From the IMG/VR virus record IMGVR_UViG_3300020530_000015, positions 1-41,826 of that record: DNA of 41,826 nucleotides, one strand, 5' to 3'. This document shows, piece after piece, positions 1,660 through 31,645 of the stretch. The notes under the pieces are model-generated. The model searched no databases, had not been told where the DNA came from, and saw only the letters and a list, made by a program, of their open reading frames with translations. The translations under genes were made by a program, and so were the position numbers. The DNA comes from a virus (lineage: Duplodnaviria > Caudoviricetes). Every line of letters starts with the position of its first letter. Within the stretch, counting starts at the first letter, position 1.

Positions 1660-3712
1660 GCGAGACATCGCCATCCCGTGCCCGCAGTCCATCGACCGTC
1701 GTTTGGCCTGTTTGGCGGATTGTCAACTTTTCCTCGAGACGTACTTCGCCGACGTGTTCTATGAAAAGTTCACGGCTGACCGTGCAGACATGATTCAGTC
1801 AATCATCAATGCCGCGATGTTTGGCGGAGACCAGGCGATCGCCGGGCCTCGCGGAGAAGGCAAAACTCGCCTGGCTCTGTTCGTCGCATTGTGGCTGGCA
1901 ATCACCGGCCTTTCGAAATTCCCGATCGTTATTGGCAAGTCGCAAAGCAAAGCCCAGAACGAGCTAAAAGGAATCAAGGAAAAGCTACAGCAATCCGAAC
2001 TGCTGATCGCAGACTTTCCCGAGGTCGGAGTACTGTTCAAAGCCGTCGGCGGATGGAGCAGCCGAGCCCGCATGCAGACAGTCCGTGGACAGCTTACGAA
2101 CATCGAGCTAGCTTCCGATCACCTCATATTCCCGAAGGTTGAACGATGGCAGTTGCCGGCAGACTGGCCGAAGAACAGCGAGCCAGTAAGCCGAGGCCAG
2201 ATCATTGCCTCGCTCGGCGTTGACGGACCGATCCGCGGCACCAACTATCGTGACCAACGACCAACCATCGCAATCATCGACGACATCGAAGACCGAGAAG
2301 CAGCGGCATCCGATACGCTGATTGCCAAGAACGAGGAGGTGATTGAGCAAGACATCGCAGGGCTCGGCCCGAGCGGCGTCCGCATTTCCCGCGTCATGCT
2401 GTGCACGACCCAAAACCGCAAGTGCATCGCCTATCGGTACACCGACCCAAAGCTGAAGCCATCTTGGAAGGGAAGACGCTACCGAAAAATGGTCAAGCGA
2501 CCCGACCGCATGGACTTGGTTCAGCAATATATCGAGATGCGTCAAAACCGATCCGAGAAAGACCCTGATGCCCGGGAAGCGTTTCGATTCTGGCGAGACC
2601 TTAAAAGCAACATCGAAGATGGCTGCGTCGTCTCCAATGCACAATCTTACGACAAGAGGTTGCACGCGGATGGTGAACCGATCGAACTATCGGCCGTTCA
2701 AGCGTACTTTAACCGCGTGGCCGATTTTGGTGAAAAAGCGGTTGCGACAGAAATTGACAACGACCCGCCGGAGGAGGCGGGCCCGGTCGGAGCTGGGCTC
2801 ACCGCAGCGATCATTACCAGCCGAGTCAACGGACTGCCTAGAAAGATGTGCCCGTTGAATACGGCAGCGATTACCGCGGCTATCGACCTCGGGAAGTATC
2901 GTTGTCACTGGGTCGTCTGTGCCTGGTGGAATGGTGCCGGCGGTGCTGTGATCGATTACGGAGTTGCCGAGGTTACTGGTACCGATACATCGATGGATCA
3001 TGAAGGCAGCGAACCGATGATCTACCGTGCTTTGCTGGAATGGCGAGACGCTATTTTGGCCAAAGAGTACATCGACCAGGCCGGCGAGCGTCGACAGATA
3101 GACTTCGCTCTAGTTGACTCTGGGACGTTCACCAATGCCGCCTATGAGTTTTGCCGGCAGGTTCGATCGCCATTCCACCCGTCAAAAGGGTTTGCCCCGT
3201 ACTACCCGAAGAAAACCTCGTCGTCTTCCGTGCTAGCTGGAAGCAACCTGCACGCTTCTAGGTTGGATTCTCAAGGACTTTGGCTATACGAGCTTGATAC
3301 CAATTATTGGAAGCAATGGGTGCACGAACGATATTTGACGCCGACGTTTGACGAACAAAACATGCTGCGGCGTGGCTCGCTGTCGCTGTTTGAGCTAGAC
3401 GGGAACCAGAAGCACCAAGCCTATGCTCATCACATCGCGGCCGAAGAGCTAGTTACCTCATTCAAGGAAGGCAAAGGGGCCAAGACGTTTTGGAACGTCA
3501 AGTCGGAAAACAACCACTGGCTCGACGCGACGTACATGGCCGCCGCATGTTCTGAGGTTTGCGGGATCAAACTGATTGCTCCCTCGGAGGTTGAGCTATC
3601 GCCGCAACAGCTCAGCGACAAACCAAAGCCAAAGCCTAAGCCAGTGCAGCAAAGGCAGCACGGCAAGTTTCGTTCTCGTCCAGGAGGGTGGATTCCCAAG
3701 CGAAGATGGTGA
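1493..3712 (+). CDS. terL: Terminase large subunit (gpA-like nuclease domain)
   Basis: Walker A GPRGEGKT, Walker B IAIIDDIE, nuclease motifs AIDLG, VDSG, NHWLDA; alternative start 1607. Confidence 0.9.
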   Translation: MSINNVEDWLTSLSTSELKSLLGSRLPVELQSQPSKPKMDERTRQRIMMAKKRAAERDIAIPCPQSIDRRLACLADCQLFLETYFADVFYEKFTADRADMIQSIINAAMFGGDQAIAGPRGEGKTRLALFVALWLAITGLSKFPIVIGKSQSKAQNELKGIKEKLQQSELLIADFPEVGVLFKAVGGWSSRARMQTVRGQLTNIELASDHLIFPKVERWQLPADWPKNSEPVSRGQIIASLGVDGPIRGTNYRDQRPTIAIIDDIEDREAAASDTLIAKNEEVIEQDIAGLGPSGVRISRVMLCTTQNRKCIAYRYTDPKLKPSWKGRRYRKMVKRPDRMDLVQQYIEMRQNRSEKDPDAREAFRFWRDLKSNIEDGCVVSNAQSYDKRLHADGEPIELSAVQAYFNRVADFGEKAVATEIDNDPPEEAGPVGAGLTAAIITSRVNGLPRKMCPLNTAAITAAIDLGKYRCHWVVCAWWNGAGGAVIDYGVAEVTGTDTSMDHEGSEPMIYRALLEWRDAILAKEYIDQAGERRQIDFALVDSGTFTNAAYEFCRQVRSPFHPSKGFAPYYPKKTSSSSVLAGSNLHASRLDSQGLWLYELDTNYWKQWVHERYLTPTFDEQNMLRRGSLSLFELDGNQKHQAYAHHIAAEELVTSFKEGKGAKTFWNVKSENNHWLDATYMAAACSEVCGIKLIAPSEVELSPQQLSDKPKPKPKPVQQRQHGKFRSRPGGWIPKRRW

Positions 3713-3717
3713 AAACA

Positions 3718-3960
3718 ATGGCAAAGAGGAAGCGAGAACATCGGTTACAGATCCCAATGGAGACACGGCTTGAGCCAACGCCGGACGTTCGTCTGATTGA
3801 CGAGCCAAAGCCTCGCGAGTTCGTCCCTCGGGACTGCTCAATGTGTGCAGCCAATCGACCACCGCGAACAAACTACTCCCGAGTCTACGCCAAGCACGGC
3901 AAGGTTCGATATTGCAAGTGCGGCTTTTGCGGCAACACCTGGGCACAAGAAGGCCCGTAG
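3718..3960 (+). CDS. Small zinc-finger protein (Ogr/Delta-like)
   Basis: CSMC...RYCKCGFCGNTW. Confidence 0.55.
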   Translation: MAKRKREHRLQIPMETRLEPTPDVRLIDEPKPREFVPRDCSMCAANRPPRTNYSRVYAKHGKVRYCKCGFCGNTWAQEGP

Positions 3961-4032
3961 TTTTTTCGTCCGTTACAATTGCAATTGTAAATAGCTGTAT
4001 AGTAATTGACATGTGCTTGCCATCTTGATGGC

Positions 4033-19171: not shown

Positions 19172-19283
19172 GAGGTCGCGGGGCTGGTGCCTCGCCGGAA
19201 CATCGGACCCAACGCAGGCGAGGTCGATCCGCCACGGTTTACACCAGCAGTTGGGAGCCAGGTTCGATTCCTGGGCGACTTCA
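19172..19283 (+). ncRNA. tRNA-like structured RNA without a canonical D or anticodon arm
   Basis: GAGGTCGC/GCGACTTC closing stem, T-arm CCAGG-TTCGATT-CCTGG, internal stems GCTGGTG/CACCAGC and CCTCGCC/GGCGAGG. Confidence 0.55.
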
Positions 19284-19367: not shown

Positions 19368-19458
19368 AGTGATCGCTTGGGTTTACCGAGTCGCGGAGAA
19401 AAGACTATGCAAAATGAAAAAACGTTGGCCGCGACTTCGGTACAACCCATTGTTCCAC
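19368..19458 (-). mobile_element. attC-like site 1 (left end is the insertion junction)
   Basis: GGGTT/AACCC, TACCGA/TCGGTA and GTCGCGG/CCGCGAC stems with two single-base bulges, ending in GTTCCAC. Confidence 0.75.
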
Positions 19459-19685
19459 GGCCTGTCGTCTTCTGGGTGTTGGTTGGACATTGGGAAGGCA
19501 CGCCGTTTCCGATCATGCGAGGTCAAACACCGCCGCCGTTTTCGGTGTGGTCGGTGACAGACCAAAAGCATTGGGAAGAGTTGCGAAGCGAGAAGTATTA
19601 CACGCGACGGTCGAAGTCTCGGCCAGTCGCAAAAGTGGATCGTGAGTTTCAGAAACAAACCGGCAAAGACGTTTGGGAAGAATGA
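19407..19685 (+). CDS. Cassette A ORF1, starting inside the attC loop
   Basis: GGAG-N9-ATG in the hairpin loop; MQNEKTLAATSVQPIVPRP... Confidence 0.6.
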   Translation: MQNEKTLAATSVQPIVPRPVVFWVLVGHWEGTPFPIMRGQTPPPFSVWSVTDQKHWEELRSEKYYTRRSKSRPVAKVDREFQKQTGKDVWEE

Positions 19686-19981
19686 TGCAGAGCGTTAAAG
19701 ATTTGGAAACATCGCTCAAGCAGATGGAAGCAGAGCGAGATTACAACGTAAGGATGCAAAAGTTTTTCGATGAAGAAGGCCACGAAGGGGCCGCGAAGTC
19801 ATACGAACGCAAAGCGTTCTGGTATCAGATCGCGTGCAACTCGATTAAGTATGAAATCAAACAGCAGCACGAAAACGACCCATACGCTAAATGCGAGTCT
19901 CTTGAAGAGTGCTTCCAGGTTTTCATGGAAGAAGATCCTCAAATGCGAAAGTTTTTTGGAAAGGACAAAGATGGCAAGTAA
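19682..19981 (+). CDS. Cassette A ORF2, hypothetical
   Basis: ATGA overlap with ORF1. Confidence 0.6.
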   Translation: MMQSVKDLETSLKQMEAERDYNVRMQKFFDEEGHEGAAKSYERKAFWYQIACNSIKYEIKQQHENDPYAKCESLEECFQVFMEEDPQMRKFFGKDKDGK

Positions 19982-20267
19982 CACGTTTACGATTGAATTG
20001 TCAGACCAGGACCGACGACGCATTGATGCGTTGTGCAAAGCGATGTGCCCAACGGGCACGGTCGCCGTGGTCGTCTACGTGGAAACCGTAGGTTTCACGG
20101 ATGGCGTTCACCTGTTTAGCAGCGTAGACGACGCGGAGCGTTGGATGCTGCAAGAGATTCGGCAGCATGGCGGCGAGCAGTCGCATTTGACGCTGGACGA
20201 GTTTCAGAAGCGGCTCAAGCCGAACGAGGATTTTTGGATTGTTGACGTTCACGATAGGCGTCGGTAG
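19971..20267 (+). CDS. Cassette A ORF3, hypothetical
   Basis: AAGGA RBS; stop 2 nt before the cassette end motif CCGTGGAAC. Confidence 0.6.
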   Translation: MASNTFTIELSDQDRRRIDALCKAMCPTGTVAVVVYVETVGFTDGVHLFSSVDDAERWMLQEIRQHGGEQSHLTLDEFQKRLKPNEDFWIVDVHDRRR

Positions 20268-20271
20268 GTCC

Positions 20272-20361
20272 GTGGAACGATTGGATTAACCCAGCCGCCG
20301 TGGTTGGGCTTCCATCAAAGAAAACGATATTCGGCGGCTTGGGTTGAATCCTTTGTTCGCC
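20272..20361 (-). mobile_element. attC-like site 2
   Basis: Minus strand GGCGAAC-AAAGG-ATTCAACC...GGTTAAT-CCAATC-GTTCCAC, the canonical R''-L''...L'-R' layout. Confidence 0.85.
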
Positions 20362-20376
20362 TGCTTTAGTGACGCA

Positions 20377-20559
20377 ATGCAAGAACCATTACCAATGATG
20401 TGTGAGCGTAACGGATGCGACAGGCAAGCCGTCTACGATTGCGAACCGATCCCAGGGACAGCCGAACCGGGATGGGAAGACGAACCAACGGCAAGGTGCG
20501 AAGAACACTCAAAGGGTTTACTGATTCTCAGGAGGGTCATAGATGTTTCCAAAGATTAA
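20377..20559 (+). CDS. Cassette B ORF1, small Cys/His zinc-binding protein
   Basis: CERNGCDRQA...RCEEH. Confidence 0.5.
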   Translation: MQEPLPMMCERNGCDRQAVYDCEPIPGTAEPGWEDEPTARCEEHSKGLLILRRVIDVSKD

Positions 20560-20677
20560 AAAGTGGCGTGGGCGTTGGCAGTTCCAGTGGTTCCGCAAGG
20601 GGCGTCTGCATTACGGAACAGACTCTTTTCGGCGATGGCTTGCGTACCCGATTCGCGTGATTCGGGGTAAGGTCTGA
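20543..20677 (+). CDS. Cassette B ORF2, 44-aa Arg/Trp-rich peptide
   Basis: GGAGGG RBS; MFPKIKKWRGRWQFQWFRKGRLHYGTDSFRRWLAYPIRVIRGKV. Confidence 0.45.
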   Translation: MFPKIKKWRGRWQFQWFRKGRLHYGTDSFRRWLAYPIRVIRGKV

Positions 20678-20688
20678 GTCAGGCGAAC

Positions 20689-21222
20689 ATGATGATCAGC
20701 GTCAACGGAATGCAAAAGATCGGCAAGTATCCAAAGATCATGGTACTCGCGAAGATGCGAGGCAATGCCGGAATCACGGTCAAGGACGTTCAGAAGTTCA
20801 TGGATTGCGACGCTCGGCAAGCGATCAGCTATATCACGCAATGCCGGCAGAAACGCTGGCTTCGCGTCGAGGGTCGAAAGAAGCTTAACTACGTCTGGGT
20901 TGCATCGGCAGCATACGACAGCTGGCTGCATGCACAGGGCGACCCGACGTTTAAGCCCGAGAGGCTCTATCCATCGGTGGCAAGAGACATCCTTCTAAAG
21001 GGACACGACGAGGACTTCGTTCCTCGCGGACTTGGCACGCCAACGCAACACCCAATCGGCAGCGAAGCAAAGATCGAAGTCCTTCGGCAGCGGGTCGAGC
21101 AAGGCTACGAGCTTTTCCATCCAGATGACTCGAAGGAGTGGGACACGACCAAGGCTAAGCCCGTCGAGGAAATCAAGACGACGAAAATCACAGTTTCTAA
21201 CAGGAAGTTTCTAGCAGATTAA
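20689..21222 (+). CDS. Hypothetical protein, possible N-terminal winged helix
   Basis: 177 aa; C-terminal PTQHPIGSEAKIEVLRQR...LFHPDD. Confidence 0.65.
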   Translation: MMISVNGMQKIGKYPKIMVLAKMRGNAGITVKDVQKFMDCDARQAISYITQCRQKRWLRVEGRKKLNYVWVASAAYDSWLHAQGDPTFKPERLYPSVARDILLKGHDEDFVPRGLGTPTQHPIGSEAKIEVLRQRVEQGYELFHPDDSKEWDTTKAKPVEEIKTTKITVSNRKFLAD

Positions 21223-28772: not shown

Positions 28773-29314
28773 TGCTGACAATCGAAGAATTTTGCGACAA
28801 GCACAAAGCGTGCAAAGAAGGTCGAGACTGGGCGTTGGCGAATTGCTCATCGATGATCGATGCTTGGGACAAGCTGCCGCTAGCGTGGCTGGTTTGGGTG
28901 GCAACGCGGCCAGGAGTGCTGACCAATTATGAGTTGCGACTATTTGTTGTGTATTGTGCCAGAAGCGTCGAGCACTTGCTGACAGACCAGCGAAGCAAAA
29001 ATGCAATCGAAGTGGCTGAGCGATTCGTAAACGGTGATGCAACCGACGAGGAATTAGCAGCGGCTTGGTCCGATGCTAGAGATGCGGCCTGGGCAGAGGC
29101 TTGCGTGGCTGCTGTTTCAGGTGTCAGGTCATCGGCTCATGCGGCCTGGGCGGCCTGGGCTGCTACGGCGGCTTATGCGGCTTATGCTGCGACTTGTGCG
29201 GCGGCTTATGCGGCTGATGCTGCGACTTGTGCGGCGGATGATGCGGCTAAAGCGGCATGTATTGAATCTCAAGCCAGCTGGTTGAGGGCGAACACAAGGC
29301 CAAGTTTTGAGTGA
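28769..29314 (+). CDS. Phage protein with Ala-rich repeat C-terminus
   Basis: LRLFVVYCAR..HLLTDQRS.NAIEVAERF; 33-bp tandem repeat at 29168-29233. Confidence 0.7.
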   Translation: MMLTIEEFCDKHKACKEGRDWALANCSSMIDAWDKLPLAWLVWVATRPGVLTNYELRLFVVYCARSVEHLLTDQRSKNAIEVAERFVNGDATDEELAAAWSDARDAAWAEACVAAVSGVRSSAHAAWAAWAATAAYAAYAATCAAAYAADAATCAADDAAKAACIESQASWLRANTRPSFE

Positions 29315-29363
29315 CACGGATCGGCAACCATTTTGCCGACGCTAGGAGAATGGAGGACGAAGC

Positions 29364-30155
29364 ATGGTACACAAATTTTTCGAGTGCGATGAATGCGGCA
29401 ATCATTCGGATCAATACTTTGTTCTGCTGTCTTACGGTGGTGGAGTCAACAGTACCGCATTACTGGTGGGATTGGAGGAACGCGACGAACGACCAGACGC
29501 AATCCTCTTTTCCGATACAGGCGGCGAAAAGCCGGGAACGTATCAGCACATAGAACGAATGCAAGAATGGTTAGCGTCCAAGAAGTTTCCTCCAATCACG
29601 GTGGTAAAGCAAAAGCTAACGCTAGAGGCAGATTGCTTGGAGCGTGAAACGCTTCCAGGGAAAGCCTTTGGTTTCGGATCGTGCAGCGATAGATTTAAGA
29701 TACAACCGCAAAAGAAATGGTTACGAGACAACGACATCAAAAACCCAATGTGGTTGGTCGGAATCCATAGCGGCGAAAAACATCGTGCGGAACGCACATT
29801 GAACCAAAGGACAGACGTTAGATTTCCATTGATCGAATGGGGTTGGGACCAAGAGGATTGCATCGAAGCTATTCGATGTGCAGGGTTGCCGATCCCGATT
29901 AAGTCAGCGTGTTTCTATTGTCCGTCGATGCGAAAAGCAGAAGTTTTGGCGTTAGCCAAAAGTGACCCCGAGCTGTTTCAGCGAGCGGTCGAAATTGAGC
30001 GAGTAGCGAAAGAGGCTGGCACGTTGCAAACCGTGAAAGGTTTGGGGCGTCTATGGTCCTGGGAGTCGCTCGTCAAGGCGGACGAATCACAGTTGAGGTT
30101 GCCATTGTTTGACGATGTGCAAGCCCCGATATGTGACCAGTGCGTCGATTGGTAG
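29364..30155 (+). CDS. PP-loop (PAPS reductase-like) enzyme, cassette C
   Basis: SYGGGVNST, FSDTGGE, FKIQP, FPL, KSACFYCP. Confidence 0.85.
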   Translation: MVHKFFECDECGNHSDQYFVLLSYGGGVNSTALLVGLEERDERPDAILFSDTGGEKPGTYQHIERMQEWLASKKFPPITVVKQKLTLEADCLERETLPGKAFGFGSCSDRFKIQPQKKWLRDNDIKNPMWLVGIHSGEKHRAERTLNQRTDVRFPLIEWGWDQEDCIEAIRCAGLPIPIKSACFYCPSMRKAEVLALAKSDPELFQRAVEIERVAKEAGTLQTVKGLGRLWSWESLVKADESQLRLPLFDDVQAPICDQCVDW

Positions 30156-30159
30156 ATCA

Positions 30160-30249
30160 GCAGAACGCTCACATTAAACCAGCGGCGAGAGTAAATGCTG
30201 CCATTGCAAACCAACGTTATCGCCGCTTGGTTTCAATGTGTTGTTATGC
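30160..30249 (-). mobile_element. attC-like site 3
   Basis: ACATT/AATGT, AAACCA/TGGTTT and GCGGCGA/TCGCCGC stems with the same two bulge positions; GCAGAAC...GTTATGC ends. Confidence 0.85.
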
Positions 30250-30267
30250 GGCGATTGAGGGTTAGAC

Positions 30268-30468
30268 ATGGCAAGCACGGAAATTACGGTGTCAGTAAAG
30301 GACACGGAAACATTCGCGAATCTTCTTGAGGCGTCGTTTAAGTTTTTTGCGTGGTACAACAAGACGTACCAGCAGCAACCGAGCAACCACCCCGAACATC
30401 CTTGGTGCAAACTTGGGCAAGTTCTGCACGAGTTGTCGGATCGTGGCATCGCGGAACCATCCGCATAA
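30268..30468 (+). CDS. Cassette D ORF, 66-aa hypothetical
   Basis: GAGGG RBS; TAA stop lies within the cassette-end CCGCATAAC. Confidence 0.65.
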   Translation: MASTEITVSVKDTETFANLLEASFKFFAWYNKTYQQQPSNHPEHPWCKLGQVLHELSDRGIAEPSA

Positions 30469-30474
30469 CGTTAC

Positions 30475-30578
30475 GGATCGGCGGCGTGGTGGGAACACGC
30501 AGGAGTGTTGGCTACATGCCCTCGTGGCGACGGCCACCGCTGGCTCCAGCGAAGCAGGTTCGAATCCTGCCCGATCCA
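30475..30578 (+). ncRNA. tRNA-like RNA with an expanded anticodon arm
   Basis: Acceptor GGATCGG/CCGATCC+A, D-arm GCGT/ACGC, GGAGT/GCTCC stem enclosing ~36 nt, T-arm GCAGG-TTCGAAT-CCTGC. Confidence 0.65.
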
Positions 30579-30644: not shown

Positions 30645-30911
30645 ATGAGACCATCTATGAAAGCAATGCACAGAACAACGATCCACGCACGATGTCCGTT
30701 TGCACCTGTTTGGGATTATTACAGCGTGCAAATCGAAACAAAAGACTTCATCAGATGCGAAAAAATCGAAGCCATCTGCGAAGAGATTCGCGGGCAGCAA
30801 ATTTCACAAGAAATGGTTTTGGAGCTTCTTCGGAAGAAGCTGAATATTGAATGCAAGATAACCGTAAAGGGTCGTCACGGCCAAAACGGAAGGCTGGTTG
30901 TTGTCGAATGA
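30645..30911 (+). CDS. Minimal QueF-like T-fold protein
   Basis: ARCPFAPVWDYY (Cys/Asp pair as in QueF CP....DF) and ISQE. Confidence 0.6.
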   Translation: MRPSMKAMHRTTIHARCPFAPVWDYYSVQIETKDFIRCEKIEAICEEIRGQQISQEMVLELLRKKLNIECKITVKGRHGQNGRLVVVE

Positions 30912-31645
30912 TTCACTACCACGGAACGCCATGCGGAGCAACACGGGAAGATGTTGCTAGATTCCTCAGGAATCGTCACGCCTTGATTTCGTTTTTTCGA
31001 CCGGAAGACATCGGAACAGCGGCCGAAGTGTGTCAATCGTTTTGCATCGACAACGGGGCTTTCTCTGCGTGGAAGCAGGGCAAAACGATTGACTGGTTGA
31101 ATTACTATCGATTCGTCGATGATTGGAAGCATCACCCAGCGTTTGATTGGGCAATCATTCCAGATGTAATCGACGGCGACGAGCGACAAAACAACGATTT
31201 AATCGACGAATGGGAGCGGTCCTTGCGTGGAACAATTGGCGTTCCAGTGTGGCACATGCACGAAAGCTTAGATCGGCTTGATTGGCTCGCATCAAATTGG
31301 GCTCGCATTGCGATTGGTTCAAGCGACATTTACGCGACGGTAGGTAACGACCGTTGGTGGCGACGCATGGCGGAAGCTATGAAAGTCGTCTGCAATGATG
31401 GCAGGCCACGCACCAAGCTGCACGGGTTGCGAATGTTAGACCCAGCAGTTTTTACCGCGTTGCCTTTGGCAAGTGCCGACAGCACGAATGCGGTACGAAA
31501 TTCATCGAGCTATAGCCGGTTTGGGATGTACTGTCCGCCAAACGCATCGACGCGGATGGCGATTATTGCGGAGCGAATCGAATCATTCCAATCGGCATCT
31601 TTGTGGGATGGATGTCCAAAGGAAGATGCGTTTACGCTTTTCTGA
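30908..31645 (+). CDS. TGT/DpdA-like transglycosylase
   Basis: DNGAF, IIPDVI, VPVWH, IAIGS, HGLR and SADST in TGT-fold order. Confidence 0.65.
   Translation: MIHYHGTPCGATREDVARFLRNRHALISFFRPEDIGTAAEVCQSFCIDNGAFSAWKQGKTIDWLNYYRFVDDWKHHPAFDWAIIPDVIDGDERQNNDLIDEWERSLRGTIGVPVWHMHESLDRLDWLASNWARIAIGSSDIYATVGNDRWWRRMAEAMKVVCNDGRPRTKLHGLRMLDPAVFTALPLASADSTNAVRNSSSYSRFGMYCPPNASTRMAIIAERIESFQSASLWDGCPKEDAFTLF

Follow-up and report, generated by a model that had tools for sequence, protein, structure and literature searches.

We propose, at a probability of roughly two in three, that the gene for a PP-loop enzyme in a lake-water phage lies in a back-to-front integron-type cassette that an integron integrase (IntI) from another phage or the host probably excised and inserted. 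It is very probable that the units are true attC cassettes, and IntI is a likely mover. The window, as we call the whole stretch of 41,826 nucleotides analysed, is the entire genome of this phage (41.8 kb, 100% complete, overlapping ends), with gene matches to lambda-type portal, terminase, capsid, tail, RecT, helicase, methylase, Mom and CsrA. No tyrosine recombinase was found in this genome by a PF00589 search in which 14/14 controls were positive. A Planctomycete is the presumed host, since the close enzyme homologues that carry names come from Allorhodopirellula and Pirellula and the attC class matches that of a Pirellulaceae bin. Promoter and terminator scans performed no better than chance, ARAGORN called no tRNA, and Rfam returned only a weak tRNA-Sec match at 19172; a second tRNA-like element (19172–19282) stands just before the first of the two cassette arrays. 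The features are as follows.

19368–20700, minus strand: first array, of the same build as the second (attC 19368–19458, attC 20272–20361, terminal half-site at 20686)
29312–29363, plus strand: left backbone anchor, with one copy of a 10-bp repeat (29316–29325), an imperfect palindrome (29327–29354) and a ribosome site before the ATG at 29364
29364–30155, plus strand: PP-loop enzyme (PAPS-reductase fold, SspD-like), 263 aa, conserved domain from the GTT codon
29405–29427, minus strand: remnant of the attC belonging to the enzyme cassette: R'' box and L'' arm (both extra bases kept), separated by a 5-nt spacer
29405–30165, minus strand: cassette A (enzyme), right end at the predicted crossover 30165/30166
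30160–30249, minus strand: complete attC, 82 nt from AAC to GTT, assigned by hairpin and geometry, belonging to cassette B
30166–30468, minus strand: cassette B, with its own attC and a 66-aa gene (30268–30468, plus strand) whose stop lies inside the terminal core site
30461–30482, minus strand: terminal docking point, predicted crossover 30468/30469, resembling the R'-L' half of an attC
30475–30578, plus strand: tRNA-like RNA, right anchor; acceptor, D-like and T arms conserved, middle variable (z = -3.37)

Geometry and polarity of the attC sites

The original prediction had paired the cores GTTCTGCTG (29421) with CAGCAGAAC (30158) and GTTATGCGG (30243) with CCGCATAAC (30461), and all of these coordinates were verified. 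Its view that four 9-bp end matches exceed chance held, as 9 of the 728 GTT words in the window have a 9-bp complement 200–900 nt downstream and four of these nine are array ends. The full attC-like hairpin placed between the two units was recovered as well: 30158–30251 folds with z = -4.37, and none of 200 shuffles was as stable. A strict scan of the window for attC geometry returned three sites (19372, 20276, 30164), all of one polarity, against 0.17 sites per shuffle and a maximum of one (60 shuffles, both strands). The complete site at 30160–30249 has RYYYAAC...GTTRRRY ends, 5- and 6-nt spacers and extra bases on the L'' arm, and reads on the plus strand AAC, 6 nt, arm, loop, arm with two extra bases, 5 nt, GTT.

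Bacterial attC sites are cut within the R' AAC of the bottom strand and have their extra bases close to L'' (Nivina et al. 2016, PMC5027507). By this geometry the plus strand of the window corresponds to the bottom strand; read in this way, the attC sites are on the minus strand, the genes are inverted relative to their sites, and the crossover falls at 30165/30166. It follows that, of the claim that a lone right arm survives left of the first unit, the lone arm stands (29310–29429 forms no hairpin, z = -0.05) but its naming does not, as it is the R''-L'' arm. Its partner arm and the loop are lost, so that 29405–29427 is a half site, with a weak match to an attC model (29397–29427, E 1.6). The PP-loop domain does begin at the GTT box, the GTT at 29421 coding for Val20 of the 263-aa open reading frame; the 66-aa frame ends inside TAAC, with its stop TAA at 30466–30468. 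The protein of cassette B has six homologues of 66–73 aa, which come without gene context, belongs to no Pfam family and had no relatives in viral contigs (9 stretches, 0 relatives).

The second array thus holds one full and two half attC sites, and the first array two full sites, one with a GAT core; neither has an integrase. In the first array, the loop of the site at 19368–19458 contains the ribosome site and ATG of a 92-aa frame, and the AAC of this terminal attC has become ATC at 19372–19374 (GTT to GAT), so the promoter-side end is disabled in both arrays. As in integron cassettes, complementary cores stand at both ends and mobility has its ends at the crossover. The orientation is that of no ordinary cassette, with genes on the plus and sites on the minus strand and the attC not after the stop codon. 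An intI gene and an attI beside the array are absent from the 41.8-kb genome; both accompany relatives of the enzyme gene in two other contigs (L110 and L115, below).

The enzyme cassette in other phages

Single-sequence scans recovered six viral and five metagenome loci, of which two are copies of the window genome and one duplicates another locus (L003). Three phage contigs (L001, L009, L010) carry the enzyme cassette at 96, 93 and 91% nucleotide identity to the window, with different flanks. Over all six pairs among the four phages, identity per 100-nt bin is 77–100% between the GTT box and the AA crossover and falls to 7–43% outside cassette A (at least 15 nt upstream, or just downstream); that of the window to the three contigs stops at 30165–30170. 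Similarity therefore begins at 29421 and ends at the crossover with attC flanks, as foreseen, and the claim that the enzyme moves as a cassette is borne out by three other contigs that share its end-points, each with the gene behind an attC.

In these three contigs the attC before the gene is intact and its loop supplies the ribosome site and ATG, so that the open frame starting there crosses the L'' arm and the R'' box before it reaches the catalytic domain. The resulting leaders of 15–16 residues are all different. The window enzyme has a 19-aa leader, of which the last five residues come from the attC arm (93% like that of L009 over the last 15 nt, the rest of the site being lost) and the remainder is a different, fused leader; these 14 foreign residues had no matches in viral contigs. 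The array of this genome would thus be a trimmed, probably frozen copy, in which the enzyme's attC has lost one arm and a leader behind the backbone ribosome site has been fused in frame to the cassette; for these reasons, the enzyme cassette should no longer excise alone.

The attC loops on near-identical cassettes are unrelated (20–43% identity), which calls for another exchange process. At its right junction, L001 has a T rather than a C after AA and continues into the middle of another (sibling) gene, a poor fit to strict IntI chemistry. Just downstream of the cassette, the same contig has a CRISPR-like mini-array at 1515–1672, with three copies of a 36-nt repeat and unique spacers of ~30 nt. 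The recombinase of a further phage, L002, does not appear IntI-like by inspection. Four loci (L003–L006) are plain genes beside DNA polymerase-like frames and have no attC, so the enzyme family occurs in both cassette and non-cassette form; the 120 best protein homologues likewise include both attC-loop-type leaders and short Met starts.

Integron integrases beside relatives of the enzyme gene

Two phage-like contigs place relatives directly at an integron integrase. The first, L110, is a 42.6-kb contig of the Pirellulaceae bin G006 with portal, terminase, capsid and CsrA matches. Its inverted array terminates with an enzyme relative (77% protein identity) of which the 3' half is present and which has its end at the same crossover; next come an A/T-rich site that resembles, by eye, the Shewanella attI quoted by Qi et al. 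(2023) and a co-oriented IntI gene (323 bits, cut-off 265) whose product is 34% identical to the chromosomal IntI. At 3420–4000 of this contig, sequence containing broken attC-like arms takes the place of the cassette's 5' half, and the 3' half still stands at the attI-like site before intI. The second, L115, is a contig from a Desulfobulbaceae bin with DnaB and terminase, in which a whole relative with complementary cores lies directly before a co-oriented IntI gene (387 bits, cut-off 265). In this contig (2750–3370 and 4708–5826), genes for another small tyrosine recombinase and an excisionase-like HTH protein lie upstream of the array, and intI directly precedes an HNH-terminase module. In both contigs the relative is the first cassette beside IntI and the intI-attC geometry is normal; only the genes are reversed, so that operon, cassettes and intI all read one way. 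Their hosts are suggested by binning, which is no proof of host. Close relatives of the L110 IntI were not found in viral contigs by single-sequence patterns, nor any IntI in the fragment of a sibling of the window phage.

Each cassette reads attC first and gene second in the phage early operon and ends at AA/C. On the reading we favour, IntI would recombine the folded plus strand at AA/C with an attI or a secondary site, and cassettes would be added at the promoter-distal end and expressed by the phage's own early transcript, which would explain the inversion.

Site class, loop start codons and frequency of the cassette form

Across 13 phage attC sites, pairing holds in 95% of cells, and both partners have changed in 13 of 18 stem pairs, as in 0 of 500 shuffles; the structure was set by hand from the same 13 sites, and slid controls pair at 25–40%. 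A model built from the phage sites had 69 matches in bin G006, forming arrays beside two IntI genes that score over the TIGR02249 cut-off. By sequence, the attC sites of the window are therefore of the same class as sites next to bacterial intI. An ATG in the loop that reads through R'' for at least 70 aa occurs in 15/30 phage sites and 0/40 chromosomal ones (p = 2e-7), the phage count being biased upward because 13 of the 30 sites trained the model and six were fetched through the enzyme. By longest frame, the 34 gaps of three chromosomal arrays comprise 20 canonical, 11 unclear and three inverted ones; the 15 gaps of the phage arrays comprise none, ten and five, respectively. The A-rich CTATG word is already present in some chromosomal attC loops and is a plausible origin of the phage loop start.

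An alignment of 111 enzyme sequences yielded 243 viral and 165 genome relatives, of which 80 each were kept. An earlier strict attC scan of 73 distinct homologue loci had found seven upstream sites, two of them probably due to chance; as it missed divergent attC types, it was replaced by a test for cores of at least 7 nt that are complementary at both gene ends, applied to 150 distinct, complete loci. Fifteen loci were positive (expected 0.65; maximum four in 300 permutations) and the other 135 were not in cassette form by this test, which misses broken cores: L001, with its broken right core, scored negative, and the 5'-truncated L110 was left out. On the enzyme tree, the cassette form (16 cases) requires 13 changes, against a mean of 15.5 and a minimum of 13 after shuffling, with few labels. 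This scatter suggests repeated entry into or exit from the cassette form. Gene-neighbour clustering found no conserved partner, no family occurring in more than 9 of 156 loci.

Fold, family and putative role of the enzyme

The best profile match of the enzyme is SspD (E 9e-19, residues 22–219, model positions 4–205 of 277), versus 3e-6 for Pfam PAPS_reduct, and SspD is also the best profile for 5/5 relatives. The aligned sequences (n = 111) share six invariant cysteines. The predicted structure (pLDDT 88.7) has a PAPS-reductase/PP-loop fold, with a best Z of 12.3 (rmsd 3.8, 155 aligned). No close relative was found among solved structures, the match to a solved CysH being weak (E 0.014). Pfam and PHROG label the protein a PAPS reductase, and an Atlas search gave viral clusters with the PAPS-reductase label only. 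The catalytic motif at the C-terminus of CysH is ECG(L/I)H; it was present in 0/111 aligned sequences. We accordingly narrow the original description as a candidate DNA-modification enzyme to an SspD-like one, on the strength of this best profile match.

DndC and SspD are PAPS-reductase-domain pyrophosphatases, and phosphorothioation also needs an NTPase partner (PMC12914056; PMC12707154). An evasion role has been proposed for PAPS reductases of phages (PMC13551039), SspD matches have been reported in Sinorhizobium prophages (PMC12429752), and in Vibrio the exchange of two genes by which Dnd was overcome included a phage fusion of a PAPS domain to a methylase (PAPS-Dam; bioRxiv 10.1101/2021.05.05.442762); passages of PMC12839542 and PMC10853773 give nothing on phage copies. 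We found no paper, in mainly open-access literature, on the activity of this enzyme family. As cargo, the cassette probably carries an ATP pyrophosphatase of the SspD/DndC type that has an iron-sulfur site and would adenylate or sulfur-mark phage DNA, alone or with host partners, and so escape phosphorothioate-sensing restriction; as the searches for a partner gene found none, we put this anti-phosphorothioate role a little below even odds.

Somewhat less credible than that role, and leaving the cassette architecture unchanged, is the alternative of a PP-loop enzyme of the ligase or thiolase kind whose substrate would be tRNA, a base precursor or a nucleotide messenger, possibly in concert with a queuine tRNA-ribosyltransferase (TGT)-like gene (30851) 700 nt downstream. 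It fits the variety of fold matches within ~3 Z units (12.3 to 9.6), namely PAPS reductases, GMP synthetase, YcfA, Cap9, LarE, NcsA, TilS and TtuA, and the lack of an SspB/SspC-like partner among the 25 window proteins scanned; a search for DUF4007 matched nothing, controls included. Against it, SspD is the clear best profile, and the TGT-like gene is kept in a sibling phage that has no enzyme gene and does not recur as a neighbour. The TGT-like gene (phrog_887) and an 88-aa gene span 30645–31645, a stretch conserved at 98.7% in the sibling; Mom (584) and a methylase (23945) add to the candidate DNA-modification genes, of which this phage has several.

Probable exchange of the cassette block between two anchors

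The sibling (L013/L020) is 81% identical to the window up to the ATG at 29364–29366 and 98.7% from 30647, with other genes between. These end in a different attC cassette, whose complementary core docks just before the same tRNA-like RNA. This RNA has a tRNA frame in 17 viral contig loci (L012–L028), with near-invariant arms and a middle of ~40–90 nt that varies freely, and was called by neither ARAGORN nor Rfam. As a general attI it was rejected: among the 17 loci, an AAC core just before it is found only in the two sibling records.

The lake population was surveyed in 8 of 24 listed lake runs, in which contigs show presence only. Contigs there span 29312–30501 or more, that is, both cassettes, and branch at 29341–29354 and 30469–30475 into several other genes, so that the whole block moves between two anchors; the left anchor leads into at least four different downstream sequences. 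No break at 30165/30166 and no excision of a single cassette were found among the joints and loose ends listed for the eight runs. A lake variant that breaks at 30468/30469 lacks AA and does not fit strict IntI chemistry, and the spacing from AAC to the tRNA-like RNA varies among variants. The palindrome at 29327–29354 with its ribosome site recurs as a module joint, with at least four genes after it and two before it in lake contigs, and a second palindrome type separates genes in L013 (262–290 and 911–935); these palindromes could be another recombination site class. Further upstream, a 181-aa gene contains Ala-rich tandem repeats of 9–12 nt (29157–29264) whose length differs between lake contigs, and the gene is wholly absent from some variants. 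In our view IntI built the slot, whose content now changes mostly as a unit: the 1.15-kb block is likely exchanged among siblings by homologous recombination (RecT, exonuclease) from the palindrome anchor to the tRNA-like RNA, and such block exchange is, with some confidence, the dominant process in this lineage today.

The same observations lend something to the view that the sites are relics of a one-time IntI capture and that what they share over short stretches (hairpin arms, ribosome sites and the like) today provides only patches of homology for module swapping of the RecT type, without any site-specific step. The branching at the outer anchors rather than the internal crossover agrees with this, as do the unrelated attC loops on near-identical genes, the half or mutated terminal sites at both ends of each array, the presence of both RecT and an exonuclease gene in the 41.8-kb genome, and another lake contig that reuses 30203–30260 (arm, core, ribosome site) before a different gene. 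We nevertheless regard it as unlikely, perhaps one chance in five, because unrelated phages cease to match precisely at the crossover and not at a homology patch, extra bases and spacers are kept under covariation, and two phage contigs have relatives next to intact IntI genes.

The 10-bp repeat ACGGATCGGC had been said to bracket the array; it does so, occurring at 29316 and 30473 only (the right copy overlapping the docking point), but it is no insertion scar, since both copies are also present in the sibling with other contents. A target-site duplication was ruled out on this ground, as L013 shows no single-copy empty site. Both copies are parts of larger conserved elements, i.e. backbone, and the repeat is weak on its own, as the window has 115 independent 10-mer pairs 20–1500 nt apart, 34 of them at 900–1400 nt. 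An auxiliary sulfur-metabolism gene (CysH) in a block inserted as one unit with duplication of this 10-bp target, as the PAPS reductase labels and the bracketing repeat might suggest, is highly improbable given the missing CysH motif, the weak match to solved CysH, the backbone nature of both repeat copies and the lack of any joint deleting from repeat to repeat in the eight runs.

Relation to known systems and significance

Clusters of attC without integrase and some integrons have been described in phage genomes (Qi et al. 2023, PMC9892861), where 5/6 tested phage attC sites recombined with attI1 by the bottom strand. The window may be akin to these phage CALINs, whose cargo included DNA methyltransferases, as it groups attC sites in two arrays and has no integrase. 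It differs from them in that their arrays are typical of bacterial ones, whereas here the genes are inverted and those of intact relatives start in the attC loop, and in that a single cassette could be followed through four phages and linked to two integrases that phages carry. The main text of Qi et al. makes no mention of antisense or opposite orientation, a start codon or Planctomycetes; we found no paper on inverted phage cassettes or loop starts in mainly open-access literature, the supplements of Qi et al. and of the preprint, which may show orientation, lying outside it. Like bacterial attC sites (PMC5027507), those of the window have the R' AAC, extra bases on L'', an unpaired spacer and a variable terminal structure; unlike bacterial cassettes, the gene is in bottom-strand sense, the attC is at the gene head and translated, and there is neither Pc nor intI. 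With SspD/DndC and the Vibrio phage protein the enzyme shares the PAPS-reductase fold, the PP-loop, conserved cysteines and a variable phage region (PMC12914056, PMC12707154, PMC13551039, bioRxiv 10.1101/2021.05.05.442762). Unlike these, it appears to be stand-alone, with neither SspB/SspC nor a methylase fusion.

New here are the traced enzyme cassette, two phage-borne integrases that hold relatives at attI, the contrast between host and phage in loop starts, and an SspD-like cargo. With one enzyme cassette traceable between phages at the exact integron crossover and linked to phage-borne integrases, the question of whether phages use integrons can be put to a direct assay, for which sites and enzymes are now defined. 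That cassette and non-cassette forms are scattered over one gene family, and that attC loops have gained start codons, bears on how cassettes are made, and the cargo gives a testable function to many phage genes that are labelled 'PAPS reductase' and have so far been read as sulfur metabolism. More tentatively, phages of Planctomycetes, Desulfobacterota and Proteobacteria may have a mirror-image integron network of their own, in which phage IntI would shuffle loop-start cassettes, genes would repeatedly gain an attC head, and the pool would stock counter-defence enzymes such as the stand-alone SspD-like protein. Such a network, if true, would be a viral mirror of the bacterial integrons that stock defences.
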